Shown here: positions 1 to 51,137 of the stretch, one piece after another
Layout of the letters: the number at the start of each line of letters is the position of its first letter
How positions within the stretch are numbered: position 1 is the stretch's first letter
Source of the DNA: a virus
DNA length: 64,000 nucleotides
Virus record (IMG/VR): IMGVR_UViG_3300033153_009093
Span: 116,375-180,374 of that record
Direction: 5' to 3' (one strand)
Position numbers and translations under genes: made by a program
The notes under the pieces: model-generated
The model's input: the letters and a program-made list of their open reading frames with translations, nothing else
Told to the model about the DNA's origin: nothing
The model's database searches: none

Positions 1-729
1 CTCATCAGAATGCCAATAACTGCCATTAAATTCAATCGCAAAACTCTTTGAGGGTATTACTATATCCAGTTCATAAGGCTTGATTATAGACCTATTGGAC
101 TGTTCATAATCAATATTTAAAGAGTCAAGAAAAGAACATATTTCTTTTTCCGGTTTTGAAACTTGATTTGAGCATTTTGGACAACTTCTTCCGCTTAAAT
201 GACTATTTGGTGTTTGTTTAAATATACCATGCTTAGGGCAAATTATTTTTATTTTAACCAGACTACCTTTATATTTTATTAATGAGTAGTCGTATTTATT
301 ATTATGTAATTTATTTGATTTATTAATAAAAGTATCATCTGTTATAGTTCGTCTATTACATTTTGGACAACCTGAGCCATATAAATGAGAATTTGCTTCT
401 TGCTAAAATATACCATGAACTTTACAAATAATTTTAATCTTTTTATGAATGGTTATATAATTAACTAACTTATAATTATATTTCTAACAATGTACTTTAA
501 TTGCTTTTTCAATAAATTCTTCTGTAGTTAATTTTTGAAAACCTGAACACTTTAGACAACCTTGTCCGCGTAAGTGTTTATTAGGAGTTTGATTAAATTC
601 TCCATGAATAGGGCAAAGTATTTTAACTTTTACATGAGCATTTACATACTTAACTAATTTATAATTATATTTCTAACCATGAACATTTATAGCTCGTTCT
701 ATAAATTTTTCAGTCGTTAATCTCTTCAT
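1..729 (-). CDS. Homing-endonuclease-like protein with 3 zinc-binding repeats (DUF723/CapR-like) and a C-terminal PD-(D/E)xK (Vsr-like) domain; 3 in-frame TAG; runs off the window edge
   Basis: Hand translation from ATG 729: three repeats of F(I)..A..VHG*KYNY..V.Y......IICP.HG.F.Q.PN.HL.G.GCPKC, then ELDIVIPSKSFAIEFNGSYWHSDE. TAG at 673-675, 484-486, 403-405; no TAA/TGA. Missing from the ORF track. Confidence 0.85.
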
Positions 730-735
730 TATTAA

Positions 736-1461
736 TTATTCTCCGCAACTTGCACTTAAATTAACAGGTTCGGTATTTCCGGTGATTTTTTCTAATATTA
801 TATCCACTGTCATAATTCTAGCAGTTAATTGAATAGAAAGACTTCCTCCGTCCTTTTTACATTCCAAATTAAAACTTTCTAAAAATTGCTGATTATCATA
901 TAATGGTAAAGAATCAAATTGAAATAATTCCTATTTTCTTAATTTTTTATACGTCATTACTCCGCTGTTAATATCCATTGTTTGATATAATTTATCATTA
1001 TAAATAACTGAAAGATTAGACATTACACCTATAGCAATATTATAAATAGTATCAACTATAGGGTTCATGTCTTCTGTTAATGTCGCAGCTAATAAAATTT
1101 CATCCAATATATAATCAAAGTGTATAAGTTCTTCCATGCAATCTATATATGAAAAAGTTTCATTCAATGAAATTTTATTAATAAATGCTCTTATGCACTT
1201 TTCATCTACATTTCCATCTTGATCCGCTATCTAATTTAAATTATGGTATGCTTTCATTTGAGCTTGATAACTCGAAGGTAAACTAGTTACATTTAATATA
1301 GTATCATCGTCATCATAACAACCTTCTAATTTAAATGATACTTCGCATACAATTGTATCATTAATATGCTATATATCAAACATATTATATTTTAATGCTC
1401 TTGTCATATACGCAGGAGTTTTATTAGTATTGACATCATCTGATATTACAACTATATCCAT
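736..1461 (-). CDS. Hypothetical protein (241 aa with TAG read as sense), possibly structural; 3 in-frame TAG
   Basis: ATG 1461 to TAA 736, open apart from TAG at 1369-1371, 1231-1233, 931-933. Fills the gap between its neighbours and subsumes track ORF 931..1167. Confidence 0.8.
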
Positions 1462-1472
1462 ATACCTTACCT

Positions 1473-2465
1473 TTATACAATTTTCTTAATTAATACATCT
1501 GTCAATTTATAATTATTATTAATATATTGATCATTTAAATCTATAAAATTTTTACTAGGGATAATGGCATACACATTATTATATAATTTATATTTATATA
1601 TTTTTTTATTATTAGATAATGTATTGATAATATTGGTAATAAACTTTAACTTATTAATATCATTATCAATAATTAAATATATATTATCATAAAAAAACTT
1701 TCCTGTATTCAATAAAAAATGAAATAATTTTTTATAATTCTTGCTACATAAAGCTAAATAATTTGAACTGGTTCCGTTTTGTAAAATGTCAGATACATTA
1801 ATAGTTATTAAATCAAACAAGCTTTCAGATATATATAAGTTCGAAAATCTATAATCATTTATCAAATAATAATAATCCAATTTATCATTATTTAATATTG
1901 AATAATTTATTTCTTTTATCTTTTTATAAGAATTCTTAGATTTAATATCATATTTATATAAAAATTTTGAATAAAAACTTTTATATATTAAAGTATTTTC
2001 AATGCAATCAATATTATAATTCTTTAATATATTATATGTCCTATTATCATTGCATCCTAATCGATACTTTACAAAATGATAGGCAATGCAATCAGTATTT
2101 ATAGTATTTTCATTGTTAAATATATTTACAATATCATATTTATAATCAACATTTATTTTTATTTTATTTCCTTTTTTAGAGAAATCGTAAGTATAAAAAT
2201 TAAAATACTGATCTAATAAAGTATTTATGTATTCTTTATTATTACCACTTTTTAATTCTTTTAATAGATTATAAACTATTCCACCTTCATTACATTTATA
2301 ACAATAAAAAAATCCATTATTATAATCTATTCTCATATGAGGTTTATTGTTTTTACTTCTACCACATAGAACGCAATTATATTGATTTACATTATCGCTG
2401 ATTTCCTTTTTATTATCTAAATATTGTTCTATAAAGGAAATTACCTGATATATATATTCATTCAT
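1473..2465 (-). CDS. DNA primase (Zn finger + TOPRIM)
   Basis: CVLC..CYKC zinc-binding domain; ISESLFD and LIIDND TOPRIM motifs. Confidence 0.8.
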   Translation of the reverse strand: MNEYIYQVISFIEQYLDNKKEISDNVNQYNCVLCGRSKNNKPHMRIDYNNGFFYCYKCNEGGIVYNLLKELKSGNNKEYINTLLDQYFNFYTYDFSKKGNKIKINVDYKYDIVNIFNNENTINTDCIAYHFVKYRLGCNDNRTYNILKNYNIDCIENTLIYKSFYSKFLYKYDIKSKNSYKKIKEINYSILNNDKLDYYYLINDYRFSNLYISESLFDLITINVSDILQNGTSSNYLALCSKNYKKLFHFLLNTGKFFYDNIYLIIDNDINKLKFITNIINTLSNNKKIYKYKLYNNVYAIIPSKNFIDLNDQYINNNYKLTDVLIKKIV

Positions 2466-6145: not shown

Positions 6146-7477
6146 ATGAAAAAGTGTATAAAAAATTATTCTATAAACATATCATCATCTAATTATAATA
6201 AATTAACCAATTATTTATTATACTATAATAAGTGTAAAAATTTATTTTATAATAAATATTAGAATGATATCGGTACAATATATTTACCATATAAATATGA
6301 ACTACGAGATACATTAGTTTCAAATATAAAAAATAATGATTTGAATATTAATGAATTGGATTTATTAAAAAGCGTTCCCGCTAAATTATAGAAAAACGCA
6401 TTAACTGAATCTATAACTAATTTAAAATCTAATTAGTCTAATACAAAAAATAGAATTAGACAAAAAATAAAAAAGAACAAAAATTTTTCTGAAAAAGATA
6501 CTCATTATTTATATTATGTACTTAAATCAAATAACATATTACATAATATAAATAATGGAGATTTGAATATAACCTTAGAAAAATTTGATGTAAATTATAA
6601 AAAACTTAATTCATATTTATATCGACAAATAAAAAAAGAAAAAAGAAAACCTTATTCTAAAAGTAATAGTTATATTATAGATAGTAGCTCGCAAATATTA
6701 TACAAACAAATAGATAATAATTTAATTTGTTTCCTATCAACATTAAAAAAACGAGAAAGGATTTTAATCCGTTTATCAAATAGTATAAAATATAAAGGCG
6801 ATATTCGTATAGTATTAAAAAATAATAAAATGGAACTACATAAAGTTATTAATATTAAACCTCAATTAAATAACAACAATTCTATTACTGGAATTTATAT
6901 TGATTTTAATAATTTATTCACAACCCAAAATAATATTTATGGTAAAAATTTCGATAAACTATTAAAAAAATTTGCACATATTATTCACTGTAAATCAAAT
7001 AAAAGGGAAATCCTTAAATCAATGAATAATATACTAATACAAAAAAATAACTTAGGTACAAAAAAATAGCACAGTAAAAAAAGAAAATTTATTAATGAAT
7101 TAAATTCCTTTATAAATTTGAATTTGAATTTATTAATTAAAGAAGAGCGGCCTAAAACTATTATTATAAAAAAAATAAATAAATATTTATTATATAATAA
7201 TAGAGATAATTTATTTAATATTCCAAACCATCATTTATAGATCTTAAATAATTATATAATAAATTACATTTATAAACGATTAGAATACAAAACACAATTA
7301 AATCAAATTAATATAATATTAGATAGTTCAAATTATACAATCAAAGTATGTAATAATTGTAAAAGTAGAAATACTATTATTACAAAAGGGTACTTTAAAT
7401 GTAATAATTGCATGGTTAGTATAACTAAAACATCTAATACAATAAACAATATGATTGAGCATCACGGTGTTAATTAA
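6146..7477 (+). CDS. tnpB: TnpB (IS200/IS605 OrfB)-like protein with degenerate RuvC, 443 aa; 5 in-frame TAG
   Basis: Open from ATG 6146 to TAA 7477 except TAG at 6260, 6389, 6434, 7067, 7238. N-terminal HTH-like region, RuvC-I-like GIYIDFNNL, KRLEYK, NYTIKVCNNC..FKCNNC zinc finger, terminal N..NNM. Confidence 0.75.
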
Positions 7478-7587: not shown

Positions 7588-7618
7588 ACCGGAGAAGATT
7601 TTCTTCTCCGGTTTTTTT
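7588..7618 (+). terminator. Intrinsic terminator between convergent tnpB-like and DUF5662-like genes
   Basis: 11-bp stem ACCGGAGAAGA/TCTTCTCCGGT plus T-tract. Confidence 0.85.
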
Positions 7619-8069
7619 ATAGATACTTTTCAATTTTTTTATTAGTACTTTCATGTAAAATCATATCACTTTTATTTTTATTAAAATATGATTTTGGTGT
7701 GCCTTCAAATTTTCTCGACATTCCCCTCTAATCGGCAATCATTTGAAGTATGTATTTTTTTGGCATTTCAATAGGAATTATTTCATTTTTCCTTGTTACA
7801 GATACCTAGTAATTCTAATGATGTTTATTTCTTTTTTGATGTTTATTCTACCCTTGTTGAAATAATTTATCGTTTCCATCAGATTTACAATAATTATTTA
7901 AGCTATCTTTCTTTTCAAAAAAGATAGCAGATGGTATAAATTCGGATGGTAAAAATTTTGATAAGTCATGAGTAATTGCATGATAATATAGTCCCATGTT
8001 GATACATTCTATTCCTACATTCTTTTTATGCTCAATAATATATTTAAAATATTTCTAATATTTATTCAT
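7617..8069 (-). CDS. DUF5662-like (HD-related) protein, 150 aa; 5 in-frame TAG
   Basis: MNKY*KYFKYIIEHK..HDLSKFLPSEF..G*NKHQKRNKHH*NY*V..MPKKY..MIAD*RGM. TAG at 8055, 7848, 7815, 7806, 7728. Missing from the ORF track. Confidence 0.85.
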
Positions 8070-16476: not shown

Positions 16477-17712
16477 TTATGTCAATGTTTCAAGAATATA
16501 ATTTTTAAAATTATCAACAATTTGTTTTTTAACTGTAATATTCCATTCATTACAACAGCACGGAGCATAATCTTTATATCTCATATCATAGTCTTCAGAT
16601 TCATGTAACGATTTTTGAAAATCGCAAATATCGTCCGCCTTCTTTACATGAATAAAACAAGGAGAAGTTGGACAATCGGATTTTATGTTTAAAGATTTTG
16701 TATATTTATAATATTTAGTTCTGCATTCATATGGAAATGGGCCGTATAACCCAATAGCAGGCTTTTCAATACCTTCACGAAAATGAAATAGTGCAGTATC
16801 AACACTAATACAAAGAGTAGCATCATATGCATCAAGAAAAAATTCATCAAGATTTTTAGCTGCTATAATTTTAATTCTGTCATCTTTTAAATTATTAATA
16901 TAATTTATATCTTCGATTCTTAAATTCAATTCATGGATATATATATTTACATCCTTATTATTAATACATTCAATTACGGATTCATAAATATCCTGAAATC
17001 TCATAGACCTAATTATAGCAGTAGATCTAGGATTAATTAAAATACTAGGTTTATCAGAATCTATATTAGATTTATTATTATTTATTCTTGCTGTTTTTAA
17101 TTGAGGTCTTCCCCATTCAAAGTCAAACTCATCAATCCCGATAGTTTTATATTGTAATTCATACCAATTATCTTTACTATTTTCAATAACACCTTCATAA
17201 TAAATAGTCTTATACCTACTATTTACTCGTTTTTTTTCTAAAGAGTTATTACTTTTATATCTTACAATTGGCGAAAAATAAGATATAAATGTCACTGGTT
17301 CTCGATACCATTTAAACACGCTTCTATATTTTTCTTGAGAAATGAATTTTAAATTTTTAGATTTCTTATTTAAAAATTGTACTATATTCATTGAAATAGA
17401 AGATAAAGCGATTAAATCGCCTATGCCTCCGGTTCTTAATATAATAGGAAATACCATTTTATTTTCTTTTGTAAAATCTAATTTATCTATAACATCGTCA
17501 ATATTTTTTTCATATTTAACAATTTTATTATAAATATTTTTTACTTGAGATGCTATCATATGTCTATCAGAAGTTCTAATAACTTCTATTAACCTTTCTT
17601 TAAATGTTAACCATATAGTATCAGCGAATAAATACATATGTTTAGGTTGTATTTTTATATCATTATCATTAATATTGATAGAAATACTTTTTTTAAATTC
17701 AACAATTTTCAT
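16477..17712 (-). CDS. Glycosyltransferase family 9 (heptosyltransferase-like)
   Basis: RTGGIGDLI and ISVDTALFH..GIEKPAIGLYGP match the GT9 GIGD / I.VDTG..H.A..L..P...L.GP motifs. Confidence 0.8.
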   Translation of the reverse strand: MKIVEFKKSISININDNDIKIQPKHMYLFADTIWLTFKERLIEVIRTSDRHMIASQVKNIYNKIVKYEKNIDDVIDKLDFTKENKMVFPIILRTGGIGDLIALSSISMNIVQFLNKKSKNLKFISQEKYRSVFKWYREPVTFISYFSPIVRYKSNNSLEKKRVNSRYKTIYYEGVIENSKDNWYELQYKTIGIDEFDFEWGRPQLKTARINNNKSNIDSDKPSILINPRSTAIIRSMRFQDIYESVIECINNKDVNIYIHELNLRIEDINYINNLKDDRIKIIAAKNLDEFFLDAYDATLCISVDTALFHFREGIEKPAIGLYGPFPYECRTKYYKYTKSLNIKSDCPTSPCFIHVKKADDICDFQKSLHESEDYDMRYKDYAPCCCNEWNITVKKQIVDNFKNYILETLT

Positions 17713-18649
17713 TAATATTACACCTTATATTATTTATTTTTTTTAATAGATAATTATAATTATCTATTATATTTTTTTCATTAACAATATTTAATGATAT
17801 ATTATCATCAAAATTATTAATATATAACTTCATTATTTTTAATAGTTCTGTTATATTAAATTGCTTACAATTATAACAAGCATCTTCTATACAGTTTATA
17901 TCATCAAAATTTATATTGAAGTATTTTATAAAATACTTCAATAAATTATTATACAAATGACATTCAGTACCAGTTTTATATTTAATGATATACTTTTTCA
18001 TATTATCTATATCATCAAAATTAATAAAATTATTTAATGATTTTGACATTTTTTCTTTTTCATTGCTTCCATAAATAACATTATTAGAAATATTAATTTT
18101 TATATTTTTTATATTTAATTTTTTATAAATATCTTTCATAATGTTAATATTTGATTTTTGATCATTTGCTAAAAAAACAGTTGTTATTTCATTATCATTA
18201 TGATATAATAATACATCAAAAGTTTGTAAAACTGGATATAATAAAAATCCCAAAGATTTATTCTTACTATTTTTAAATGTAGGATTTTTTAATAATTTTG
18301 ATGTATTTATTAACGGAAGATATTTATATGTTAAAGAAGTATGATAATTATTAATGTTTTTATTATTTTGAAATATAAATAATAATTTATTAATATTATT
18401 ATCAATGTTTTTATTATTATATATTAAATATGTTTTATATAATGAATAAATCTTTTTTGCTAGTAAAATAGAATTATTATTTATTTTATTAGCTGAAATA
18501 TTAGATAATTCTGAATGAGTTTCAGCTAGTAAAATAAATATTTTATTAACATTTTTAAACATTATATTATCAAACATATTTAAAATTGTCATAACATGTC
18601 CAATATGTAAATTATTTCCCGTTGATCTAATTCCAAAATATATATTCAT
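17699..18649 (-). CDS. trpS: Tryptophanyl-tRNA synthetase (divergent, Thermotoga-type-like)
   Basis: GIRSTG..LHIGH (HIGH), GFLLYPVLQTFDVLLY, NDQK....KDIYKKLN, KMSKS; C-x22-C-x4-C-x2-C near the C-terminus. Confidence 0.8.
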   Translation of the reverse strand: MNIYFGIRSTGNNLHIGHVMTILNMFDNIMFKNVNKIFILLAETHSELSNISANKINNNSILLAKKIYSLYKTYLIYNNKNIDNNINKLLFIFQNNKNINNYHTSLTYKYLPLINTSKLLKNPTFKNSKNKSLGFLLYPVLQTFDVLLYHNDNEITTVFLANDQKSNINIMKDIYKKLNIKNIKINISNNVIYGSNEKEKMSKSLNNFINFDDIDNMKKYIIKYKTGTECHLYNNLLKYFIKYFNINFDDINCIEDACYNCKQFNITELLKIMKLYINNFDDNISLNIVNEKNIIDNYNYLLKKINNIRCNINENC

Positions 18650-19116: not shown

Positions 19117-20166
19117 ATGTGTAAATTTATTACTAATTTAAATTATAAAAAAAATTTTAATAATAAGAAGTATGATTATATTCTTATTGATATAAACAGT
19201 TTGACTTTAGTGCCTTATCTTAATAGTGAAAAATATTTTTCAAAAGATAACATTAACATTACTCCTTTTATTGAAACTATAAAGTTATATGCTAATTATA
19301 AAAAATATTTTCCGAAAGCAAAATTTATATTTGCTATTGACGGGGGTATATCTCCTACAATTTTAAAAGTTTACCCTGATTATAAAAAAAATAGAAATTC
19401 AAAAAAATATACATCAAAACATTATAATTCAACAATTTGTAAAAATATATATGATTACAATGTAGGATTATTAATAGCTTTATTTGATAAATTGCAAGAG
19501 TTTTTTATTTATGATATTAGAAGAAATGAAGCTGATTTTATTATTGGCTATATAGCCAATAAATTATCAAAAAATAATAAATGTTTGATATTATCTCATG
19601 ATAAAGATTTATTATTTGCATATAATAAAAACAATAATATTGATATAATTTATAAATATATCAATATGAAATATAATAAAGTTTTATATTATTATGTTGA
19701 TTCATTTGAATGTTTATTACATATAATAGATTTCAGATATTTAAAAAATGAAATAGAATTGCTCTATTACCGGTCTTTAGTTGGCGATACAAGTGATAGT
19801 ATTAAAAAACCTTTCGGTTTAAAATCAAAAAAAATTGTTAATAATATGTTTGAAAATTGTTATTTAGAAAATATCAATGTTACTTATGAATATATTATTG
19901 GATATTTTTCAGAAAAATTTAATAATAAAAAAGTATTAGATAATTTTATTGTTGATTTTCGAAGAAATTTATTGATAATGAATATTTTCAATGAAAATAT
20001 TATATTGCAAAATGATAAAATAAAATTGAATGCATATATTGATGATGTAAAATATAAAAACAATGAAAAAATTGAAATTAATTCAATACATAGTTTATTT
20101 TCTAAATATGGATTGTATTTAGAAAAAGATAATATTAATAAAATGTTTAAATATTTAAAAGGTTAA
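19117..20166 (+). CDS. 5'-3' exonuclease / RNase H (FEN1/T4 Rnh-like), paralog 1, TAG-free
   Basis: LIDIN, FAIDG, YKKNR, NEADF, SHDKD, LVGDTSD. Confidence 0.85.
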   Translation: MCKFITNLNYKKNFNNKKYDYILIDINSLTLVPYLNSEKYFSKDNINITPFIETIKLYANYKKYFPKAKFIFAIDGGISPTILKVYPDYKKNRNSKKYTSKHYNSTICKNIYDYNVGLLIALFDKLQEFFIYDIRRNEADFIIGYIANKLSKNNKCLILSHDKDLLFAYNKNNNIDIIYKYINMKYNKVLYYYVDSFECLLHIIDFRYLKNEIELLYYRSLVGDTSDSIKKPFGLKSKKIVNNMFENCYLENINVTYEYIIGYFSEKFNNKKVLDNFIVDFRRNLLIMNIFNENIILQNDKIKLNAYIDDVKYKNNEKIEINSIHSLFSKYGLYLEKDNINKMFKYLKG

Positions 20167-20174: not shown

Positions 20175-20930
20175 ATGAAAAATAAAACTTACATTAAAAC
20201 CCCAAAAAAAGAAAATACTACAACATCATTATCAAATTCTAAATTTGATGAATCTCTATCATTAAATAATATTTAGTTTGGTGGCAATTCGAAAGTATCA
20301 AATACTTCTGAAGAAATAGAAGAAACATCGAATACAGAAGAAACGGCAGATTCCCCGGAAAATTTTTTCTTTGATATGGGAAATGTTTCATTAAAAGATA
20401 ATTTCACTATATATTTTGACTCGCCAGTATATTCTAATTCTGTAAATATGGCAATGGATTTATTAAAACAGGTTAATAGAAATATTGCAATGACAGAATT
20501 AGAATATCCTGAATTGAAAGGTTTATTAAATGTAAAATTTATTATCAATTCAGGTGGCGGTGAAATTATTCAAGGTTTGAGATTATTCGATTCTATAAGA
20601 AATAATGCGTTTCCTGTAAATACTATTGCATCTGGAATGGCCGCAAGTATGGGAATAATTTTATTAGTAGCAGGACATAAAGTTCAAGCGGTAGAAAATA
20701 GCGTATTAATGATTCATCAGTTATCTGCTGGAATGGGTGGAAAATTTTTTGAATTAAGAGATCATATGAAATTTTATACAGAATTGCAGAATAAATTGTC
20801 TGCAATTTTAATAGAAAATTCAAAAGCGAAAAAAGAAGACGTACTTAATTTTATGAAAGGTGAATCGTTTATATTAACTAAAGACGCTTTAAAATTAGGT
20901 ATCATAGACGAAATAGTAAAATCTATATAA
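20175..20930 (+). CDS. clpP: ClpP-like serine protease with an acidic N-terminal extension revealed by TAG readthrough
   Basis: INSGGGE..GL.LFD, GMAASMG, MIHQ, ALKLGIIDEI. ATG 20175 is in frame with track ORF 20376 through one TAG at 20274-20276. Confidence 0.8.
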
Positions 20931-21336: not shown

Positions 21337-21840
21337 ATGGCTAAAAGAACAAATAATTATAAAAGAACATCAGAAAGAAGAGATTATAAAAAATCTAAAA
21401 ATGTATAGAAAACTCTAGATTTTTTACAAACTAATGGCAGATTGCCACTTAAAAGTAATTTATCACATTCAGAAGTAAATAGTAGATGTTTATTCTATTA
21501 TAATAGAATTCAAGAAATAAACATTTTTTTTATTGAAAATAAATATGATAAAACTTTATTGAAAAAAAGGAAATCAGAGTATCAGGATTATATAATAAAT
21601 TTGGTTAGTATTGTTATTAGTTCTGTTATAAAACGATTTAAAACTTTATATCCAGCTTATTACGATGATGTATTTACAGACTGCGTTGTAGATATTCTTA
21701 TTAAAATAGAAAAAAATAAATATGATAATAAGAAGTCATCATAGCATAGTTATTGTTATGAGACTTCTTATTAGGCATGTATAAAATATATACATGCTAA
21801 AGCTCAATATGAAAATAATACTGTACAGTTAATTCAATAA
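21337..21840 (+). CDS. Sigma-factor-like protein (region 2-like), probable late transcription factor; 3 in-frame TAG
   Basis: DDVFTDCVVDILIKIEKNKYDNKKSS*HSYCYETSY*ACIKYI resembles sigma region 2.2-2.4. TAG at 21406, 21742, 21772. Confidence 0.6.
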
Positions 21841-21845: not shown

Positions 21846-22538
21846 ATGAAAAAATTTATAACTTCATATAGTAATAAAAAAATAAAACCATAGAAGGATG
21901 ATATTTGTAATTTAAAAGAGAATGGACTACTTCTTCCTTATTACAATAAAAGATATAAAAACTTTATGTATAATATTGATAATACTTTAATACATAAAGT
22001 TTTTTATTATAATAAAGATAGGAAAATTTCTGGTTTTTATTTTGATAAATATAAAAAAATATCATTTGATATGTTAGACAATTTACCATTTGATACTGAT
22101 CATTTTATTACCTATGAAATTATAGGATATTCCATTTTTGTAATTAGTAATAATAAAACTATTTATTCATTTAATAAGTATAAAAAATGTGACAATGAAT
22201 TAAATAATTATATTGATAATAATTATAAATTAAAATATTTAATAAATAAATATGATAAATATATTTTTGAATTTAAATTATTCGACAATGAATTATTTTT
22301 AATAAGTATTTTTAATAATATTGAAATTAAGAATTATACATTTATTAAAAATGTTTCAAATATGTATGATATAAAAATTCCGAAGTTGGTTAATTCTAAT
22401 TTATATAAATTCGGAAATGGTATGATGGATGTATTTTATAATGATTACTATTGGAATAATTCAATTTTTTTAAAGAATAGAAACTATTATTTAACTTTTA
22501 TGTTTCAAAATAATAAATATCTATTATATAAGTTATAA
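21846..22538 (+). CDS. Hypothetical protein with weak RNA-ligase-1-like fold but no KxDG lysine; 1 in-frame TAG
   Basis: ATG 21846 joins track ORF 21966 through TAG 21891; HKVFYYN..ITYEIIGYSIFV..FEF. Confidence 0.5.
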
Positions 22539-22571: not shown

Positions 22572-23300
22572 TTAAGATACCGCTTCTATACCATATTTGG
22601 TAGCCGTGACTCGTTTCATAGGTACATCGCCTTGTCTGAAATTTATTTCAACTTCTACAGTTGAAACATCAGGGTTAAATGGATCGGTGACATCAAAATA
22701 AGTATCAATGTCAACAAGATAAGCATTTCTTGTAGTTCCATCTGGATAATTTACTTTTTTACGGTATGTGATAGTTCTTGAACCAAAATCATCCGTTGGC
22801 TGATCTACAGATTTAGAAGTTACAATCTAATTACCTTCTGCCGGTATAGCTATTTCATTAGATATAGTATATAGACCATCAGCAGTAGTTACAGCCAATA
22901 AATTAGCAGGGGTAGGGGTAACATCCAAATCTTTCCAAGTGGCGTTTATTTCCACCGTACAGCTTTTAATTTTAAGGGGTGTACATGCTAAGGTAGTGAC
23001 TGCTGTACCATCGATAGCCAAGCCAGCTAAAAATGATGCATCTTGACCTTTAGCTAATTCGGTCGGTTTATATTTTGGCATAGCTTCTTCTGTTAATTTA
23101 ACAGAAACGTTTTCATAACATAAGTTAGGATCGGATAATACACCTATAGAACAAATAGAAAATTCATCTTCAAAAGAATAAGATTTTTCTATATTTTTTA
23201 TAAACATATGAACGGTATCACCACAATCTAATTCACCTTCAGAAATTCTGAAGTCTGTTTTAGTTTTATAACCGGAGGTTGTCCCGAAACGTATTGACAT
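22572..23300 (-). CDS. Probable virion structural/decoration protein (242 aa with readthrough); 1 in-frame TAG
   Basis: Track ORF ends at TAG 22827-22829, but the frame continues for 84 sense codons to TAA 22572. T/A/G/D-rich beta-type composition, higher GC than neighbours. Confidence 0.7.
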
Positions 23301-24257: not shown

Positions 24258-24494
24258 ATGAATAATAGTATAATTTAGTTTAAAAAAGAAAATAATATTT
24301 GTAAAGTTATAAAATATGAATCGGAATTAAATTTAGATCACATTGTCAAATTAAATGATATTGTTTTTGAAAAATATTCTATATTATCAAAAATGGTACA
24401 AAAAAATAAAGTATATAAGTAGATAGGTATTTTAGAAAAAAAAAGAGTAAGAATATATGCAATAAAAACAAAATCGATAATTGGTATTTCATGA
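24258..24494 (+). CDS. Hypothetical protein (78 aa); 2 in-frame TAG
   Basis: ATG 24258 to TGA 24494, TAG at 24276 and 24420; fills an otherwise empty gap. Confidence 0.65.
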
Positions 24495-25145: not shown

Positions 25146-25170
25146 AATATTGATAAATAAAAGGAAAATC

Positions 25171-26493: not shown

Positions 26494-26712
26494 ATGGTTA
26501 ATATAACAGTTGAAAAAAAATCATATGAATCATTATATGGAATGATAAGTAGATTTAATAAAAAGGTAGAGGATGAAGGTATTTTAAAAGATTATAAATT
26601 ATCCCAAATGAGAAAACAAGATAGACTGACTTTTAAAAAATTTACTGCGGAAAGAAGAAGAGAAAAGCAACAAAAAAGAATTCAGTTAGCTATGAATTCA
26701 TCTCGATCATGA
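26494..26712 (+). CDS. rpsU: Ribosomal protein bS21 homolog
   Basis: ITVEKKSYESLYGMISRFNKKVEDEGILKDY plus basic C-terminal tail; 72 aa. Confidence 0.7.
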   Translation: MVNITVEKKSYESLYGMISRFNKKVEDEGILKDYKLSQMRKQDRLTFKKFTAERRREKQQKRIQLAMNSSRS

Positions 26713-27620
26713 AAACTACATACAAAATATCAAAGAATTTTTTAAAAAATAAAGATTATAAAATTTGTATATTTGATGTTAATTCTTTATTTTTATTTAA
26801 TGGCAAAAATAGTATAAGGTTAATGTACGATTTTATAGCTAATTTAAGAAAAACATTCCCTGACTTATTAATAATAAACGTAATAGATAATGGTATTAGT
26901 AATATTTTATTAAATAAATATCCATATTATAAAGCGAACAGAAATCATTCAATAAAAAGTAATAATATTATTATTAATAAATTTGGAACAATAAATAGTT
27001 TTAAGGCAAAAATCGGCAGAATACATAAGTTAGATGAATCATTCAATAAAAATTTAACGTTTTATTATCCAGGTGAAAGTGATTTTAAAATAGGATAGAT
27101 TTTAAAATATATAAATAAATATACATCGTTATCTAGCGATAATATATTGACGGTTTCATTAGATAAAGATTTTTTATTAACAACGATATTAAGTGATTTT
27201 TTATTAAAAAGAAGAATAAATAAGAAGACACATTATTGTTTGATAGACAGTAATGTTAATATTGAACAAGTGAAAAGTGTTTTTGGAATAGAAAAATTGA
27301 ATATTAAAAATCCATATGATTATTTTTATTTCTTAATATTAAATGGCGATAGAATAGATAATATAAAAAAATTATTTACAAAAGGTCAATCGATAAAAAT
27401 TTTGAATAATATATTAGATGATTTTGACGATATTAATTTAAACTTATTATTAAAATATTCAAAAAAAATATCAAATGAGATTGATACGAAATCTATTTAT
27501 GACAATGGTTATTTAGTCGATTTATTTAATGATGATATTTTTACAATAACGGAAAAAAATATAATGAAATGGATTATGAATTATTTTTTTCAAAACAATA
27601 ATATAAATATTTTATTATGA
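26709..27620 (+). CDS. 5'-3' exonuclease / RNase H (FEN1-like), paralog 2; 1 in-frame TAG
   Basis: IFDVN, VIDNG, YKANR, ESDF..G*..SLDKDF, LNGDRIDNI; TAG 27096-27098 joins two track ORFs in frame. Confidence 0.85.
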
Positions 27621-28090: not shown

Positions 28091-29863
28091 ATGAAATTAA
28101 AAAGTAATAATATTAAATTAAATTTAGCAAATAGAAATAGTATAAAAAAAAATACATCAACTCCTAGTAAAAATTAGGATAGTATTACTGATAATCCTGC
28201 CATTAGAGATAAAATATTATCAAATACTAAATATGATATTCTTAATGAATCAGGATCAGAAATTAATAACGCTGCAATGAAAGCGTTTACTGATATGGGA
28301 ATAGCTGTCAGTGATGTAAATGTAAATGATCCGTTATCTCATAAAAATGTTATTAAGAGAGTTAATTTATATTTAAAAAGATTTCCGGAAGTCGAATATA
28401 TTGTAGATATGATAGCATCATCCGTGATATATTCATCATCCAGTAATACTAAAAAAATACAATGTACGTTAAGAGGAGATTATAAAACGTTAAATGGTTC
28501 GGACAGCACAATATCAGACAGTACAGAAAATGTCGATATCAGTGTCGATATCAATGATATAAAAGTTAAAAAAATAGATTCATAGTATGATGATTTAAAT
28601 TTACAAATTGGTAATTTATTTAAAAAGAATAATATTAAATTAGCTCTATATGATTTTATAAAGTCTATAGTAAATTATGGATGTAGTATATTTTATATCA
28701 ATGATACTGCAAAATACGAAGATGTTTCATTTTATAGTTTGGATGAATTAGATTTTTCATTTGAAAAAGATGAGGTTCATACTAATGCACTTTTGAATGA
28801 ATTGAAAAGAGAAGATAGTAAAATATTTGAAATATCAGAATTAAATAATGAAATTAAAAAGTTTAATTCAAATATAGTAACTGCAAAATTAAAAGAAGAC
28901 GATACAGAGTTGGATATATCAAAAATGTATTTTATTTCCGAAAAAGGTATTTTTGGAAAATCTAAGGTAATGAAAATAATTCATTATTTAAAGACTGTTG
29001 AGTTATTGGAGCTATCTTTACTTATTGAAAGATTATCAAAAACGAAAACTACACATGTATAGAAACTGGATTTAGATAAAGTTGAAGAAGAAGATTTATC
29101 TTCAACATTATTATTATATAGAAATTTATTAAAATCAAAGGTAGCACTGAATTACGATGAAGAAAATGATAATATGCAATTTGATTTTGTAAAAAATCTA
29201 GTTGATAATAATATTTTGGTACCTACAGAAAATGATAACTTAACAATTGATACATTAAAATCTGATTTTAAGCCATTATTAGATGATGTAAGTTATTATT
29301 AGGATAAAATATATTTATCAATGGGACTACCTTCGTATTACAGAAACTCCGATTCAAAGACGTATACAAACAATAATATGTTAATAATGCATGATAATGT
29401 ATATTCTATGAAAATTAGACATTATCAACTTATAATAAATAATTTATTAACATTTTAGATTGAGAATTGGTTAAAAGTTAATTTTTCAAAAATATCAGTT
29501 AAATACTTAAATATAAATATACCAGAATTTATTCCTTTAAGTGAGCGGAAAGAAACAGATATCGATAAATCTGGAAAATTTATCAATATGTTTTCGCAAT
29601 TAGAAAGTACTTTAGGTGTAAAATTAAAAAGAGAATTTGTATTAAATAAATTATTTCCTAATGATATTATATCCGATATGGTAGAAGTGGAAGAAATGGA
29701 TATTAAAAATGATATAGATTCTAATGAAAATAAAAAAGATGAAATAATGTCAATGTTTGAAGAAGGTGAAAACAAAAAAGAAAGCCTAAAGTTTTTTAGT
29801 ATCACTAAACAAGATAATATAGATATTATTAGGTATGATTTAAATTTAAGTATAAATTGGTGA
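28091..29863 (+). CDS. Portal vertex protein (T4 gp20-like), 590 aa; 5 in-frame TAG
   Basis: TAG at 28175, 28583, 29060, 29300, 29456 join three track ORFs. LELSLLIERLSK..HV*KLD and LDDVSYY*DKIYLSMGLP align with gp20 [18 protein letters not shown] and EDIRWFRQALYMALRVP (recalled). Confidence 0.8.
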
Positions 29864-30339: not shown

Positions 30340-30680
30340 TAAGAGAATTAACAACTAGATACGGGTTAACGTATATTGGCGCATATGAAAAATCAGATGA
30401 TAAATATCATTATTATAAAGATGTTATGATGGTTTCTATGAAACCTGTAAAAGTTAATGATGAAAAATATAACATGGTACCTGCGGTAGATGTTATAAAT
30501 ATATTTTCAAATGATAGCGACTTTAAGTTTAAAGTCGGAGATGTAATTTATCAAGGGGAAGTTGAATATGAAAATTTTATCAAATTATATCTTGATACTC
30601 TTCAAATGTATCAAAGTGCGAAAATTAAACATGGTACATTTAAAGAAGATGATACAAATATAAGCATTCAAAAAAAGTAA
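30336..30680 (+). CDS. Hypothetical protein (Sm-like, T4-type)
   Basis: RELTTRYGLTYIG..YKDVMMV. Confidence 0.6.
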   Translation: MIRELTTRYGLTYIGAYEKSDDKYHYYKDVMMVSMKPVKVNDEKYNMVPAVDVINIFSNDSDFKFKVGDVIYQGEVEYENFIKLYLDTLQMYQSAKIKHGTFKEDDTNISIQKK

Positions 30681-31021
30681 TGGTTTATCAAAATTAGAAA
30701 GAAATAAAATCCGATGATATTATAGAATTAATAACCGTAAATTTTCTTAGATTAATAGGATTAGTTAAGTATAATAAAAAAAACCACATATTACTAATTG
30801 ATCCTTGTATTGTTGATGTAAAAAAAGTAGAAAATATTGAAAATAATACCGTACATTTTATTACAAATATGTTACCGTTTAGATTAACAGGAGATAATAA
30901 TGAGGCATTATTTAATTATAAAAAATTAAGTAGTATATCTATAGTATCATCAGATAAATTTATAAATATGTAGGATATGAATGTAACCGAATTTGCAAAA
31001 CTTTATTTACATTCTAAATAA
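30680..31021 (+). CDS. Hypothetical protein (Sm-like paralog possible); 2 in-frame TAG
   Basis: ATG overlaps the upstream TAA; TAG at 30695 and 30971; ends TAA 31021. Missing from the track. Confidence 0.7.
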
Positions 31022-35119: not shown

Positions 35120-35180
35120 AAAGGTTAATGGTATGATGTAGTATTTTTATGATATAAGTAATGAAAGACATCAGGATATA

Positions 35181-35501
35181 TTGGAGTATTCAATACAAAA
35201 TTTTGATAATGATAATAAAATACATTTACAAAATACATTAACTGAAAATGAATTTGTAAATAATTATAAAAATATTGGAATAGATGTTTTAGTATTAAAT
35301 TATAATAAAAAATTCCTTACAAGAATAAGAAATGAAAGTATAAATTTAATAATTATTTGTAATGAGTATTTAGAAATAGAAAGATGTATTGATATTTTTG
35401 AAAAATCAAAACCAGCTAATTATCAAATTATATTAACACCTAAAATGACTTCAACGGAAGTCATTATGAACTTAACAAATATACTTAACAATGAAAATTA
35501 A
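35181..35501 (+). CDS. Hypothetical protein
   Basis: 106-aa ORF with TTG start. Confidence 0.5.
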   Translation: MEYSIQNFDNDNKIHLQNTLTENEFVNNYKNIGIDVLVLNYNKKFLTRIRNESINLIIICNEYLEIERCIDIFEKSKPANYQIILTPKMTSTEVIMNLTNILNNEN

Positions 35502-40541: not shown

Positions 40542-41066
40542 ATGGAATCATTTTTAATTGCTATCCAAGGTATGCTCCAGTTTTTATTTTTATTAGGTAT
40601 AATAAAATACATTTTACTTAGTAACAAATATAATATATTGAATATTAAATACATTAATATTGTTACTAAGTGGAATAATTTAGTATTACGTGTTAATGAG
40701 AGTAATAAGTCAAATAATACTAATATACCTTTTACGAGCAAAGAATTAAAGCTAATAATGAAAAGGTGTCATCCTGATAAAAATAGTAATGACTTAGATA
40801 ATAAAAAATTAATACAAGATAGTAATAATGACACTTTGGAAGAAGTGGCAAATAATTTAAAGCATAAAAGTGATAAAGAAAATATATTGCCAGATGAAGG
40901 CATTGGGGTTGTAGCAGAAATATAGTCTATATCATGTATAGGCAAATCTAACTGGTATGAAGTTGTATATAGGCTAAATGATGAATGGCATTCTTATATA
41001 GGTAGTAAAACCTTTGAAGATGGAGAAAAGGTTATAAGGTGGAAATATCCCGAAAGTTGTTTTTAA
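40542..41066 (+). CDS. Membrane-anchored protein with a J-domain-like HPD motif; 1 in-frame TAG
   Basis: N-terminal TM, KRCHPDKN; frame continues past TAG 40923 to TAA 41066 (SNWYEVVY..EWHSY..DGEKVIRWKY). Confidence 0.65.
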
Positions 41067-41663: not shown

Positions 41664-41946
41664 TAATAAAAAATGATAGAATGTCACCAATGCGGTAATG
41701 AAATTCCTGAACATATAAATGATACATGGAATGAATTTTCAAAATTAACAAAAGATGAAGTATGTCAGTTAATTAAATATAAAAGATAAAAAATTATGTC
41801 AGAAAAAAATAAAAAAATAGATAAATATCATTATCATGAATTTTTAGATAGATGCGCAGTGATTCAAGATAATATAGAATATTTTTTAAGAGAGCATCCT
41901 GTTGCGAATAAAACTGTAATAAAAAAAATTATAAGGAAAAATGAAT

Positions 41947-42255
41947 ATGGTCATTGATTATTATGATTGTGATGTCTGTAATAAAAACGGAGTTTATGAA
42001 GAATATATAAGTTAGTGTAATAATTGCTAGAAAAATATATGCAGTAGTTGTACATTAAAAGAAAGCAAAGATGTTCCTTATATAGGATCTGATATTAGAG
42101 AAGATGTTGCTGGTTATATAAAAAGTGAATTTTGTCCATTTTGTAACGGTGATAAAATATCAGACAATCAAAGGCTAATTTTTTTATTAGATATTGTAAA
42201 TATGCCAATAGAAGATCTTGATAAAAGCATTTTAGAAAAAACAAAACATAAATAA
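41947..42255 (+). CDS. Cys-rich Zn-finger protein; 2 in-frame TAG
   Basis: CDVC..S*CNNC*KNICSSC..CPFC; TAG at 42013 and 42028. Missing from the track. Confidence 0.75.
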
Positions 42256-46603: not shown

Positions 46604-47200
46604 ATGAGTACTTTAGAAAAATATGTTTCGGGTATCTTGCAATAGGCTTTAATTATAGGCGTTGTTATCGCAGGTTCGTATTACTATACAAAGATTCCCG
46701 CAGATTTAGAATGGATAAAGATGGTGGCTTATGGTGCTATTGGTACTATGATTTCTACAACTTTACCACTGTATTTAATTAGACGGAGGCGGTCAAAAAC
46801 AAGACCGTTTATGAATAGCGAAAATACATTTGATGTATCATATCATACTAATCCATCTTCTGGCGGCAAAAAATTACAAGTATATATTGATAGAAAAGTG
46901 CCTTCGTTAATATACGAACCAATAAATCATTATTTCTTACCTTGGTAGTTAGAAATTTGCGATGTCGATCTTATCAGAGGGTTATTTGAATTTGGTGACA
47001 TTACAATGAATTCAAACGTTAATGATGGTAATAATTTAAAGAAAGTACCAAGAGGTTTAGAAGTCAGAGGCGGCCCTGCGAGAAATATTCTTGGCGAAAA
47101 GCAAAAAATTGAAAATAGAAAAAAATTATCTTCTTGTGATAAAAAACATTTAGATGTATTTTATGCAATTAAAGATGCTGGAGTTTTAGTAAAGGAATAA
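46604..47200 (+). CDS. Two-TM membrane protein (holin-like candidate), 198 aa; 2 in-frame TAG
   Basis: TAG 46643 and 46946 join two track ORFs; TM segments ALIIGVVIAGSYYY and VAYGAIGTMISTTLPLYLI followed by RRRRSK. Confidence 0.6.
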
Positions 47201-48110: not shown

Positions 48111-48136
48111 TAGTACATTACTGTATTAGTTTTATT

Positions 48137-48165: not shown

Positions 48166-48177
48166 ATTCAAAAGCTA

Positions 48178-48206
48178 TTGACAATTATTATCAATAATGG
48201 TATAAT
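48178..48206 (+). promoter_or_regulatory. Consensus sigma70 promoter
   Basis: TTGACA-N17-TATAAT with extended TG. Confidence 0.85.
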
Positions 48207-48250
48207 ATTGATTATATAATTTATAAATACCAACTTAAAAAAAAAGGAAT

Positions 48251-48973: not shown

Positions 48974-48995
48974 TAATTACTAAAAAAGGAAACTT

Positions 48996-49520: not shown

Positions 49521-49546
49521 TTAGCGGTAAATATAAAAAATAGTAT

Positions 49547-49576
49547 ATAGGAGACTAATAATCTCCTATTTTTTTT
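49547..49576 (+). terminator. Intrinsic terminator
   Basis: ATAGGAGA/TCTCCTAT stem plus T-tract. Confidence 0.7.
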
Positions 49577-49585
49577 AATAAAATT

Positions 49586-50070
49586 ATGAAAGAATATAAA
49601 AAAATAGTTGAATATATTAATACTGATATAAAAGAAATAGTACTTAATGACAATTAGAAAAAAGTTATTAAATATATTGAAAGAAATAATAATAATAATA
49701 TTATTATATTTAAAGATAGACAAGTAGGATTTACTACTTTGACAAATTTATATATATATTGTATAAATTTTTATATGAAAAAGAAAGTAGCGTGATAGCT
49801 TGTCATAGTCAAAGAATGGTAAATTGTTGCAAAGATGACATTATAAAAATTATTAGTAGACAAAAAACTTTACAAGATATTCTGATTACTAATAATAAAA
49901 TTTCATATCATGATCGCAATGATGAAATTACTATAAGATTTATTACTAATTCATATGAGTATAAAAGTTGCAGTATTAATAATTTAATAATAAACGATTC
50001 TGATTATATAGAAAATTTTAGATACACATTTACAACTTATTATACATCTATAATGTACAATAAGTTGTAA
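49586..50070 (+). pseudogene. Short terminase-ATPase-like gene with 1 TAG and a frameshift in an (AT)n tract
   Basis: LNDN*KKVI..IIIFKDRQVGFTTL (Q-motif and RQ.G.TT Walker-A-like); frame shifts at 49749-49760 into track ORF 49759. Confidence 0.5.
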
Positions 50071-50190
50071 AATTATACTATCTATAGATAGTATACATTG
50101 TGAATTTATAAAAGATTTACTAATGAAATACGGAGCTATATTTTTATTAAACACTTCAGTATAATAATAATTAATAAGGAAAAAAATAAT

Positions 50191-50655
50191 ATGAAAGAAA
50201 TAAAATTAAAATTGCATAGCATTGTTGATCTGATTACTAATTCATCTACAGTTTTATATACTGACAGTAGAAAATCCGAAGAAGCTTTGATAAATGTTAT
50301 GGGAGAAATTTTTAAATTACATAATATTGATAAAAAAGTAAAAGACGTATTTGATATTTCAGTAACCGTTGAAGATCTCGATGAACATATTTATAGTTAT
50401 ATTTATGATAATCCTGATGAGTTTGAACTTGAATATGATGATGATCTAGGTTCAAAAGTAAATGATTTGACTATTCAATATATGGAAGATTTTAAATCTG
50501 GTAAGATTAAAATGCCTGATTGGATGGATGGTTTAGGCGAAGATTCTGCAAGTAATTGGATTTCTATTGTATCAAAAGAAAAAGAGTACGAATATTTAGC
50601 AGGATTATTAGAAAAATTAATTTATAGTATTGATGTAGAAGAAGGAATTGAATAA
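50191..50655 (+). CDS. Hypothetical protein (DLITNSST family), paralog B
   Basis: Shares MKEIKLKLHSIVDLITNSSTV and a C-terminal I..KE..YE..A..L..LIYS motif with paralog A. Confidence 0.75.
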   Translation: MKEIKLKLHSIVDLITNSSTVLYTDSRKSEEALINVMGEIFKLHNIDKKVKDVFDISVTVEDLDEHIYSYIYDNPDEFELEYDDDLGSKVNDLTIQYMEDFKSGKIKMPDWMDGLGEDSASNWISIVSKEKEYEYLAGLLEKLIYSIDVEEGIE

Positions 50656-50845
50656 TTGAATATGATAGTTATCTTAAGTTGTCTATATAAGATTTAAGCT
50701 ACTTTTTATAGTTTTATATAGACAACTACCTAAATTATGTCATCGGTTTAAATTAGAGGCTATTCTGTTACGCTATTAAAGAACTATTGTCTATTATTCA
50801 ATTAAGAAATAGGGGCAATTATTAATGTTACCGAGTCCCTATTTT

Positions 50846-51137
50846 TTATATAGCTACAAGCTTTCTGCCGCTATTTTCATCTATAAATATCTTAACAGTT
50901 GGTACATATGTTAATGCTTCTGCAACAGCGTAGGTATTATTAGAATTTTTATGTTGCGTAGTGACTTGCACGATACATCCACCATGTACTTGACATGCTT
51001 TAGTACTTTTCATCTATCCTTCATTTTCACTTGATGCTTTGTATAGTAGTTGAAACATATCACCATTTCCTTATTATTTCAACATCTTTTACATTTTTTC
51101 TTGTACCGTTTACATTGGAATTATTAAGTGTCTTCAT
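50846..51137 (-). pseudogene. Conserved phage hypothetical protein (KASS..EGWMKSTKA family) with one +1 frameshift and 1 TAG
   Basis: MKTLNNSNVNGTRKNVKDVEII/GNGDMFQLLYKASSENEG*MKSTKA..VQVTTQ..VAEALTYVP; extra base near 51071; TAG 51014-51016. Confidence 0.7.

Follow-up and report, generated by a model that had tools for sequence, protein, structure and literature searches.

Evidence that the amber codon is read as tryptophan in a large T4-like phage encoding its own CUA tRNA and tryptophanyl-tRNA synthetase

The reading frames of this locus are interrupted by TAG, which raises the question of whether the amber codon is translated and, if so, as which amino acid and by what means. The window analysed is a stretch of 64 kb at the end of a complete T4-like phage genome of 180,374 bp and 24% GC. 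The initial annotation had described 18 genes with 41 in-frame TAGs between window positions 1 and 51137; the 18 genes were recovered with a total of 42 TAGs and, as described, no internal TAA or TGA. In a non-overlapping gene set for the whole genome, 311 in-frame TAGs were located in 68 genes with no TAA or TGA interruptions, and the set with TAG as sense spanned 93.9% of the genome. When ORFs of at least 100 aa were counted over the whole genome, coverage was 115.6 kb with table 11 and 163.7 kb with TAG as sense, while TGA as sense gave little gain (127.1 kb). Thus, one stop codon alone interrupts genes and reading through it restores coding density, the pattern by which recoded phages are recognised. 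The TAG-as-sense ORFs of at least 100 aa ended in TAA in 147 cases and in TGA in 33, and both codons still act as stops.

Since TAA and TGA together are expected about once per 14 codons at the base composition of the genome, chance cannot account for frames that reach 1253 codons and contain 20 TAGs but neither of the other two stops. The TAGs could still be untranslated, the result of pseudogenes, assembly errors or rare leaky read-through, an explanation that is hardly credible given that the 311 TAGs are accompanied by zero TAA or TGA interruptions, are spread evenly along gene length, include six TAG-TAG doublets and coexist with a dedicated tRNA. Moreover, same-site TAGs recur in independent assemblies from other samples, with 89 sites in common between the phage and the relative G001, and are therefore not read or assembly errors. 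Two small genes at 51905-52345 and 57739-57933 each carry one TAG, located two to three codons ahead of TAA.

The TAG-bearing genes of the window include a TnpB-like gene (6146-7477, plus strand; five TAGs, no TGG), a DUF5662 gene (7617-8069, minus strand; five TAGs, no TGG) and an SLT-domain transglycosylase-like gene (24507-25160, plus strand; three TAGs), for each of which the earlier label was confirmed by family match. A ClpP-like head maturation protease (20175-20930, plus strand) carries one TAG. The window opens with the 3' part of a zinc-finger (DUF4379/DUF723) and Vsr-like nuclease gene (1-729, minus strand) that has three TAGs in the window; the complete gene, with its start at genome position 117103, has four. 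The 590-aa gene at 28091-29863 (plus strand; five TAGs) had been labelled portal, for which no match was obtained in Pfam, PHROG or PDB. As to the proposed TAG-bearing FEN-like nuclease, the clear 5'-3' exonuclease at 19117-20166 is TAG-free, and a weak exonuclease PHROG match was given only by the gene at 26709-27620 (plus strand; one TAG). Genes of unknown function are located at 736-1461 (minus strand; three TAGs, no TGG), 21337-21840 (plus strand; three TAGs), 21846-22538 (plus strand; one TAG), 22572-23300 (minus strand; one TAG) and 40542-41066 (phrog_23756, plus strand; one TAG). The remainder comprises small genes at 24258-24494 (plus strand; two TAGs) and 50846-51058 (minus strand; one TAG), together with genes on the plus strand at 30680-31021, 41941-42255 and 46604-47200 with two TAGs each and at 35133-35501 with one.

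The identity of the amino acid was evaluated from conserved alignment columns. All five TAGs of the DUF5662 protein occupy family Trp positions, as the initial annotation had supposed, the columns being W in 91, 117, 120, 120 and 119 of 120 homologues. All conserved W columns of this family are TAG in the phage gene, whereas the conserved Q and Y columns are filled by ordinary Q (CAA) and Y codons. The terminase carries nine TAGs, of which those at 134, 276 and 286 align with W in 6/7, 7/7 and 7/7 distant homologues that use the standard code, and a standard-code homologue with 57% identity has TGG at seven of the nine sites. In TnpB, TAG encodes residues 97 and 82, where 91/100 and 57/100 homologues have W, and takes up two of the three W columns that are conserved. 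Thus, W dominates the conserved columns at TAG in all three proteins and Q is essentially absent, and the alignment of TAG with Trp expected of NCBI table 32 was found in DUF5662 (5/5), terminase (three columns) and TnpB (two columns). In the zinc-finger repeats, whose HG.FWQ motif had been offered as a further Trp column, HG.F is followed by N, TAG or K, and the column is not clearly Trp.

Orthologues from seven related loci or genomes gave a consistent result. The codon opposite TAG was most often TAG, with TGG next and TAT or TTT after it; CAA or CAG was never found opposite TAG in these alignments. Genetic code 15, in which TAG specifies Gln as in crAss-like and Lak phages with the host GlnRS loading the CUA tRNA, was rejected as a candidate since the conserved TAG columns are W-dominated with Q essentially absent. 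Public pipelines have given the terminases of relatives with TAG as Q, yet BLOSUM62 sums opposite TAG were 782 for W, 463 for Y and -321 for Q, and CAA is the codon at the Q positions conserved in DUF5662. A reading as Tyr, through a class Ic enzyme resembling TyrRS and a CUA tRNA resembling tRNA-Tyr, draws on the finding that TAT is the second most common sense codon opposite TAG and that about one-fifth of the opposite residues in relatives are Tyr. However, the pooled sense residues opposite TAG comprised W (33.5%), Y (21.9%) and F (10.3%), a profile typical of a Trp codon, while Y stood opposite 61% of the phage's own Tyr codons; in DUF5662, TAG fills the columns with invariant W, and the conserved Y positions have ordinary Tyr codons.

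Codon usage leads to the same amino acid. The share of TGG among codons was 0.17% in TAG genes versus 0.85% in TAG-free genes, while the frequencies of Gln and Tyr were unchanged between the two sets. The scarcity of TGG inferred earlier from a hand count of about 10 was borne out, with 12 TGG codons counted in the 18 TAG genes of the window. In TAG genes TAG/(TAG+TGG) was 0.87, and in the same genes AAA/(AAA+AAG) was 0.87, GAA/(GAA+GAG) 0.92 and CAA/(CAA+CAG) 0.84. TAG and TGG would accordingly be neutral synonyms inside TAG-using genes, at the A/G mutational equilibrium of the genome, with TAG having displaced 87% of TGG because of AT pressure. The similarity of the TAG:TGG ratio to those of other A/G synonymous pairs makes this a clean natural case of AT-driven codon takeover after reassignment.

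A search of the whole genome for a tRNA with anticodon CUA was successful. The gene, the only tRNA gene of the genome, is located on the minus strand at genome positions 108714-108787, outside the window and 7588 bases before window position 1 (7.6 kb upstream). It has C1-G72, U73 and an encoded CCA, and provides the phage-encoded suppressor tRNA typical of recoded phages; this single tRNA very probably reads TAG. Bacterial tRNA-Trp is identified by G73 as discriminator together with the weak pair A1-U72, and tRNA-Gln by U1-A72 and G73. The tRNA-Trp identity elements were not found on the phage tRNA, which has U73 and C1-G72 instead in all three phage genomes, and the same acceptor end is without the features of tRNA-Gln. 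No close sequence likeness was detected to any of the tRNA classes compared. The anticodon loop CU-CUA-AA fits the CU-NNN-AA of tRNA-Trp with one base difference, a property shared with E. coli su+7, a tRNA-Trp with CUA anticodon that is loaded mostly with Gln; U35 in a CUA anticodon draws GlnRS in E. coli. This precedent favors Gln, but the phage tRNA differs from su+7 at the acceptor end (C1-G72, U73), where it also departs from the U1-A72 and G73 of tRNA-Gln. Taken with the alignments and the codon frequencies, the Gln reading is very improbable. In favor of Tyr, C1-G72 together with a short variable loop is characteristic of archaeal or eukaryotic tRNA-Tyr, and the anticodon arm resembles that of E. 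coli tRNA-Tyr.

The synthetase encoded in the window bears directly on the choice between Tyr and Trp. The TrpRS gene noted earlier (17699-18649, minus strand; 316 aa, no TAG and no TGG) was verified by match to PF00579 (83.6 bits, cut-off 21.1), by PDB sequence match and by fold. The deduced protein contains HIGH and KMSKS, the Asp in YPVLQTFD and four cysteines arranged as C-x22-C-x4-C-x2-C (C230, C253, C258 and C261). In a family of 15 sequences, LHIGH, KMSKS and the four Cys are invariant, with Cys spacings of x22, x4-6 and x2. The Fe-S-subtype TrpRS of T. maritima has the motif C-x22-C-x6-C-x2-C near the anticodon-binding domain, and the phage enzyme fits this subtype by its four-Cys motif, a putative metal-binding site. 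The NCBIfam TrpRS equivalog model scored the phage enzyme at 32 bits, below the cut-off of 572, and the best NCBIfam match, slightly above the TrpRS model, was tyrS (40 bits, 2e-10), itself far under its cut-off of 114. Although that match favors Tyr, phmmer against PDB gave T. maritima TrpRS (2g36) as the best match (E 2e-7) and TrpRS as five of eight matches, with the best TyrRS at 1.5e-3. The AlphaFold model (pLDDT 86) gave TrpRS for all listed Foldseek PDB matches through rank 50, again with 2g36 the best. The enzyme is a very divergent bacterial-type class Ic TrpRS of the Thermotoga type, nearer to TrpRS than to TyrRS in both sequence and fold. With this enzyme, the four-Cys motif of the T. 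maritima type and no Tyr deficit in TAG genes, a Tyr reading is highly improbable. The column tallies, the CUA tRNA and the shared TAG sites support the earlier reading, and TAG is very likely a tryptophan codon in this phage, in effect NCBI table 32 with TAA and TGA as stops, as judged from sequence comparison.

The genes for the CUA tRNA and TrpRS are 25 kb apart in the phage genome. The phage TrpRS probably loads this tRNA with Trp, in which case C1-G72 and U73 would be the recognition marks of a private TrpRS/tRNA pair and would shield the tRNA from the GlnRS and TrpRS of the host. Alternatively, TAG is Trp but the host TrpRS loads the tRNA, and the phage TrpRS has some other role, such as boosting the supply of Trp-tRNA or replacing a shut-off host enzyme. 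It has been proposed that phage suppressors are usually loaded by the synthetases of their hosts (Borges et al., bioRxiv 10.1101/2021.08.26.457843), and the link of the phage TrpRS to the CUA tRNA is one that we infer. However, two relatives of 233 and 276 kb (G001 and G002) also carry TrpRS and a CUA tRNA with C1-G72/U73, so that TrpRS, this tRNA and TAG recoding occur together in three of three complete genomes despite TrpRS identities of 42-47%. Furthermore, tRNA-Trp(CCA) is absent from all three, leaving none for the phage TrpRS to serve. Bacterial TrpRS depends on C35 and G73, while the phage tRNA has U35 and U73. Loading by the host enzyme is therefore unlikely, although it is the least implausible of the alternatives to loading by the phage TrpRS.

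Release factors distinguish the genomes. In G001 and G002 an RF2 gene with SPF and GGQ motifs is located 0.4-1.1 kb from the tRNA, and no release-factor gene was found in the 180,374-bp genome.

The distribution of TAG suggests how the code may be used. The TAG-free set includes TrpRS, RNR, rIIB, dUTPase, two helicases, ligase and a CCA-adding-type enzyme, and TAG-rich genes comprise the terminase, the capsid protein, the head protease and a block at 20-105 kb of the genome. The pattern of recoded phages, with TAG concentrated in late and structural genes and early genes compatible with the standard code, was thus found here, the label late being partly inferred. Since no recognisable family match was obtained for most TAG-rich genes, that label rests on the terminase, capsid and protease and on position; no enrichment of a T4-type late-promoter motif was detected upstream of TAG genes. 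Most tryptophans of the late genes are written TAG. The replication and nucleotide-metabolism genes and TrpRS, being TAG-free, could be made under the code of the host, whereas translation of the terminase, capsid, protease and long virion-region genes could not be finished until both the tRNA and TrpRS were available. Because the TAG-filled late genes would need both and the TAG-free genes neither, a delay of late-gene translation may be the use of the code, a proposal with about even chances of being correct.

In phages whose code differs from that of the host, Borges et al. (bioRxiv 10.1101/2021.08.26.457843) state that they observed no reassignment besides TAG to Gln and TGA to Trp, which they explained by the ease with which host GlnRS and TrpRS are hijacked. 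The crAss-like, Lak, Jade and Agate phages recoded in this way (code 15 or code 4; bioRxiv 10.1101/2021.08.26.457843; Cook et al. 2024, PMC11210395) resemble the present phage in confining the sense use of a stop codon largely to structural and late genes, in keeping early and code-change genes readable in the standard code, in a phage-borne suppressor tRNA, and in a release factor and synthetase in some relatives. They differ in that TAG is Trp here, and the hijack explanation does not cover a Trp-loaded CUA tRNA. The code-change module of the Jade phages, which recode TGA, and the TrpRS:tRNA-UCA pairs of AP1 and HF2, of which AP1 was demonstrated to be self-contained and orthogonal (PMC12636597), likewise combine a phage TrpRS, a suppressor tRNA and a release factor, all written in the standard code, the factor in the present case being that of G001 and G002. 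In those systems UGA is read by a UCA anticodon, the tRNA carries G73 or A73 as discriminator and RF1 is the partner factor, whereas here the anticodon is CUA, U73 accompanies C1-G72, TrpRS has four cysteines and the partner in relatives is RF2; moreover, here the tRNA and TrpRS are 25 kb apart and this genome is without the factor.

UAG as Trp is not new to biology in general, since NCBI table 32 is the plastid code of Balanophoraceae (Balanophora; Su et al. 2019 as cited in PMC13128298), but the earlier statement, which concerned phages, agrees with the published reports found: published UAG as Trp was found for the plastid of a parasitic plant and for no phage. The plastid code shares UAG as Trp, TAA and TGA as stops, a reader with CUA anticodon, an AT-rich genome (extremely so in the plastid) and the change of TGG to TAG along the mutational bias. 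There, tRNA-Trp(CUA) is a duplicate of nuclear tRNA-Trp loaded by cytosolic TrpRS and the plastid RF1 is lost (PMC13128298), whereas here a virus has its own atypical tRNA and TrpRS, acts in a cell presumably with RF1 and uses the codon in part of its genome.

Public protein collections store the TAG of these phages as Gln, and gene callers of the prodigal-gv type with table 15 mistranslate the clade, late-gene Trp written TAG becoming Gln, to the detriment of homology searches and structure prediction for the whole clade. TAG as Trp would be a third stop-codon meaning in phage codes and would contradict the published view that phages are limited to TAG to Gln and TGA to Trp as side reactions of host synthetases. 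The balance of the results leans slightly toward a clade of large T4-like phages with a self-contained amber-to-Trp kit, in which an Fe-S-type TrpRS would have switched from CCA to CUA, a tRNA of private identity (C1-G72, U73) would be ignored by host GlnRS and TrpRS, RF2 would be added in the larger relatives and the whole would serve to time or lock the translation of late genes. The mechanism pointed to is a virus that brings both halves of an orthogonal synthetase/tRNA amber pair. If this reading is correct, the clade would have a genetic code new to phages and would supply, ready-made, an orthogonal TrpRS/tRNA-CUA pair with which to expand the genetic code, of direct use for tryptophan analogues at UAG.

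The window comprises bases 116375-180374 of a single 180,374-bp virus record that is rated complete in IMG/VR with annotated inverted terminal repeats. The genome has a G+C content of 24% and is T4-like, with genes encoding a gp17-type terminase, a gp23-type capsid protein and rIIB, together with one tRNA and one tmRNA in the whole genome. Open reading frames of at least 100 amino acids covered 115.6 kb under the standard code (table 11) and 163.7 kb with TAG read as sense, while reading TGA as sense gave only 127.1 kb. A greedy, non-overlapping set of 216 genes called with TAG as sense covered 93.9% of the genome and contained 311 in-frame TAGs in 68 genes. The initial annotation had counted 41 TAGs in 18 genes between window positions 1-51137, an observation confirmed by a recount of 42 TAGs in 18 genes. 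The codons were evenly spread along the genes (35, 33, 34, 28, 36, 31, 29, 19, 32 and 34 per successive tenth of gene length) and included six TAG-TAG doublets. Since TAA or TGA is expected about once per 14 codons at the base composition of the genome, chance is excluded as the origin of frames of 800-2200 codons in which TAG is the sole interruption. The genome ends (window 63887-64000; genome 1-114) are 114 identical inverted bases, a perfect inverted terminal repeat that may be genuine or may have arisen in assembly, whereas the terminal repeats are direct in two complete IMG/VR relatives of 276 kb (G001) and 233 kb (G002).

Four independent lines of evidence, namely conserved columns, relatives, codon usage and synonymy, agree that TAG is read as tryptophan, in support of the assignment proposed in the initial annotation. 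The five TAGs of the DUF5662 gene (window 7617-8069) were compared with 120 full-length homologues of 57-71% identity and fall in columns occupied by tryptophan in 91, 117, 120, 120 and 119 of these. Each conserved tryptophan column of the family is TAG in the phage gene, and the conserved glutamine and tyrosine columns are ordinary codons for those residues. The terminase contains nine TAGs and no TGG; at residues 134, 276 and 286 the TAGs coincide with tryptophan in 6/7, 7/7 and 7/7 distant standard-code homologues, and two further TAGs lie in aromatic F/Y columns. Two TAGs of the TnpB-like gene (window 6146-7477, plus strand) occupy columns that are tryptophan in 91/100 and 57/100 homologues; a third is in a Y/F/W column. 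This IS200/IS605-type gene has adopted the phage code, with five TAGs and no TGG, and a relative (L122) carries a 78%-identical copy, which indicates that the gene has long been resident in the phage and did not arrive recently.

In the database proteins closest to the terminase, glutamine and tryptophan are mixed exactly at its TAG sites. A DNA look-up of these homologues revealed that the protein records had been called "with TAG=Q", and thus each glutamine at these sites is itself a TAG; the Q/W alternation in the alignment results from late-gene tryptophan that is written as TAG and stored as glutamine. Public protein collections hold proteins of the clade translated with TAG as glutamine (L010:3880-5685 and L011:10001-11812; proteins P0121-P0133). 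Seven of the nine TAG sites are TGG in a terminase relative of 57% identity whose gene is readable under table 11. Across seven related loci or genomes, the codon opposite the phage's own TAG was most often TAG, followed by TGG and next by TAT or TTT; CAA and CAG never occurred there. The pooled sense residues opposite TAG were 33.5% tryptophan, 21.9% tyrosine and 10.3% phenylalanine, which is the substitution spectrum of a tryptophan codon; summed BLOSUM62 scores were 782 for tryptophan, 463 for tyrosine, 218 for phenylalanine and -321 for glutamine.

Codon usage gave the same result. TGG made up 0.17% and TAG 1.12% of codons in the 68 TAG-containing genes, compared with 0.85% TGG in the 148 TAG-free genes, and the densities of TAG and TGG were anticorrelated across genes (Spearman -0.47, p = 6e-8). 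Glutamine (2.09 versus 2.32%) and tyrosine (7.03 versus 6.65%) did not differ between TAG-containing and TAG-free genes. The ratio TAG/(TAG+TGG) in the TAG genes was 0.87, beside 0.87 for AAA/(AAA+AAG), 0.92 for GAA/(GAA+GAG) and 0.84 for CAA/(CAA+CAG), indicating that TAG and TGG share the A/G mutational equilibrium seen in synonymous pairs.

The single tRNA of the genome is a tRNA-CUA on the minus strand at genome 108714-108787, 7.6 kb before the window, with a score of 59.4 bits against the Rfam tRNA model. Its anticodon CUA sits in a CU-CUA-AA loop, its acceptor end has a C1-G72 pair, U73 and an encoded CCA, and its variable loop is short. The gene is flanked by TAG-free replication-type helicase genes and lies upstream of a TAG-rich block on the same strand. 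No isotype signal emerged when the tRNA body was compared pairwise with 191 phage tRNAs. A 15-nt anticodon-arm pattern retrieved >100 unrelated amber suppressor tRNAs from viral contigs, none resembling the phage tRNA-CUA, and the one match to a longer tRNA pattern in metagenome contigs was an unrelated tRNA with G1-C72 and A73. The tRNA-CUAs of G001 and G002 share C1-G72, U73, CCA and CU-CUA-AA with that of the 180-kb genome and differ in the remainder of the acceptor stem; the variable arm of the G001 copy (G001:112953-113043) is long, for a total tRNA length of 91 nt. A tRNA-Trp(CCA) is absent from all three complete genomes, including G001 with its 22 tRNAs. Recognition by bacterial TrpRS depends on C35 and G73, and recognition by GlnRS on G73 and a weak 1-72 pair. 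Set against these rules, U35 together with C1-G72 and U73, the latter proposed as identity marks from three tRNA-CUA sequences only, should exclude the host TrpRS and GlnRS and call for a dedicated enzyme.

A class Ic synthetase encoded at window 17699-18649 (minus strand) is identified as a TrpRS on the basis of its sequence and predicted structure. Of eight matches to PDB sequences, five were bacterial TrpRS, among them the top one (T. maritima 2g36, 2e-7), and the best TyrRS match was 1.5e-3. The AlphaFold model (pLDDT 86, pTM 0.88) retrieved only TrpRS among the Foldseek matches to the PDB listed through rank 50, with 2g36 first. The protein is very divergent, scoring 32 bits against an NCBIfam cut-off of 572 bits. 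Among 15 phage enzymes of the family, HxGH, KMSKS, the Asp of YP(V/I)LQxxD and a DQ pair are invariant, as are four cysteines with spacing x22, x4-6 and x2, a spacing that matches the 4Fe-4S motif adjoining the anticodon-binding domain of the T. maritima enzyme. The gene contains neither TAG nor TGG. Its surroundings, in the order 5'-3' exonuclease, small ORF, TrpRS, glycosyltransferase, rIIA/B, dUTPase, dNMP kinase and RNR, are common to contigs of several metagenomes.

In-frame TAGs numbered 412 in G001 and 302 in G002, and the terminase tryptophan columns of both are TAG or TGG. In both, an RF2 gene lies within 0.4-1.1 kb of tRNA-CUA (L211, G001:110633-113962; L212, G002:91712-95041); the products, of 370 and 380 aa, contain SPF and GGQ motifs. 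No release-factor gene was found in the 180-kb genome; the 374-aa ORF adjoining its tRNA-CUA (genome 107623-108747) is unrelated to RF2. A search of IMG/VR with a single terminase sequence as query returned no related locus. Genome contigs searched with the TrpRS family yielded one contig only (L210, JAOZRH010000017.1, 21.8 kb), with a TrpRS of 39% identity, binned in a Ca. Neomarinimicrobiota MAG. Since another contig of that bin carries a long array of about 20 tRNAs, the bin probably includes phage DNA; it is not a reliable host call and is at most a weak hint at a marine setting.

Most of the large TAG-rich proteins had no match in Pfam or PHROGs. The gene at window 28091-29863, initially annotated as a portal, had no Pfam, PHROG or PDB sequence match, and comparison of the SLT gene with the PDB gave no usable alignment. 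This SLT-like gene (24507-25160, plus strand) is in the same frame as a small gene with two TAGs (24258-24494, plus strand), with TGA and 12 bases between them. A tmRNA at window 55607-55965 (minus strand; Rfam RF00023, 100.7 bits), with the predicted tag peptide ADDYAIAMAA, is located in the TAG-free, TGG-rich early region. A TAG-free gene at genome 25022-26269 (minus strand; L002:10025-11269) belongs to the PolyA polymerase/CCA-adding enzyme family (PF01743, PF12627), possibly a further tRNA-related phage function.

TAG thus occupies sites where tryptophan belongs, the CUA tRNA and the TrpRS are encoded and conserved together, and neither the TrpRS nor the replication genes require TAG to be read for their translation. 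The tRNA-CUA would probably be loaded with tryptophan by the phage TrpRS. Accumulation of the two would then allow late proteins to be finished, and we give an even chance to these proteins being completed only after such a build-up. Gating of this kind is the timing model proposed by Borges et al. for other recoded phages (bioRxiv 10.1101/2021.08.26.457843). The T4 late-promoter motif TATAAATA was not enriched upstream of TAG genes (8/68 versus 12/148, p = 0.45). Two small genes of the TGG-using early region (window 51905-52345 and 57739-57933, both minus strand) each have one TAG 2-3 codons ahead of TAA; such TAGs may act as true stops backed up by the TAA, in which case TAG could still terminate translation in the early stage of infection.

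Phage papers describe TAG as glutamine and TGA as tryptophan, with TGA as glycine in phages thought to share the code of the host; the first two were the sole reassignments seen by Borges et al. where phage and host codes differ. In E. coli, orthogonality has been demonstrated for phage TrpRS:tRNA-UCA pairs that read UGA (PMC12636597). UAG is read as tryptophan, as in the phage studied here, in Balanophora plastids (NCBI table 32), where it is explained by a duplicated nuclear tRNA-Trp(CUA) and loss of plastid RF1 and is described by the authors as exceptionally rare (PMC13128298). A literature search, with incomplete journal coverage, found no report of UAG as tryptophan in a phage or prokaryote. 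The results indicate that this phage recodes a stop codon, giving it a new meaning, and is equipped with its own tRNA and its own TrpRS.
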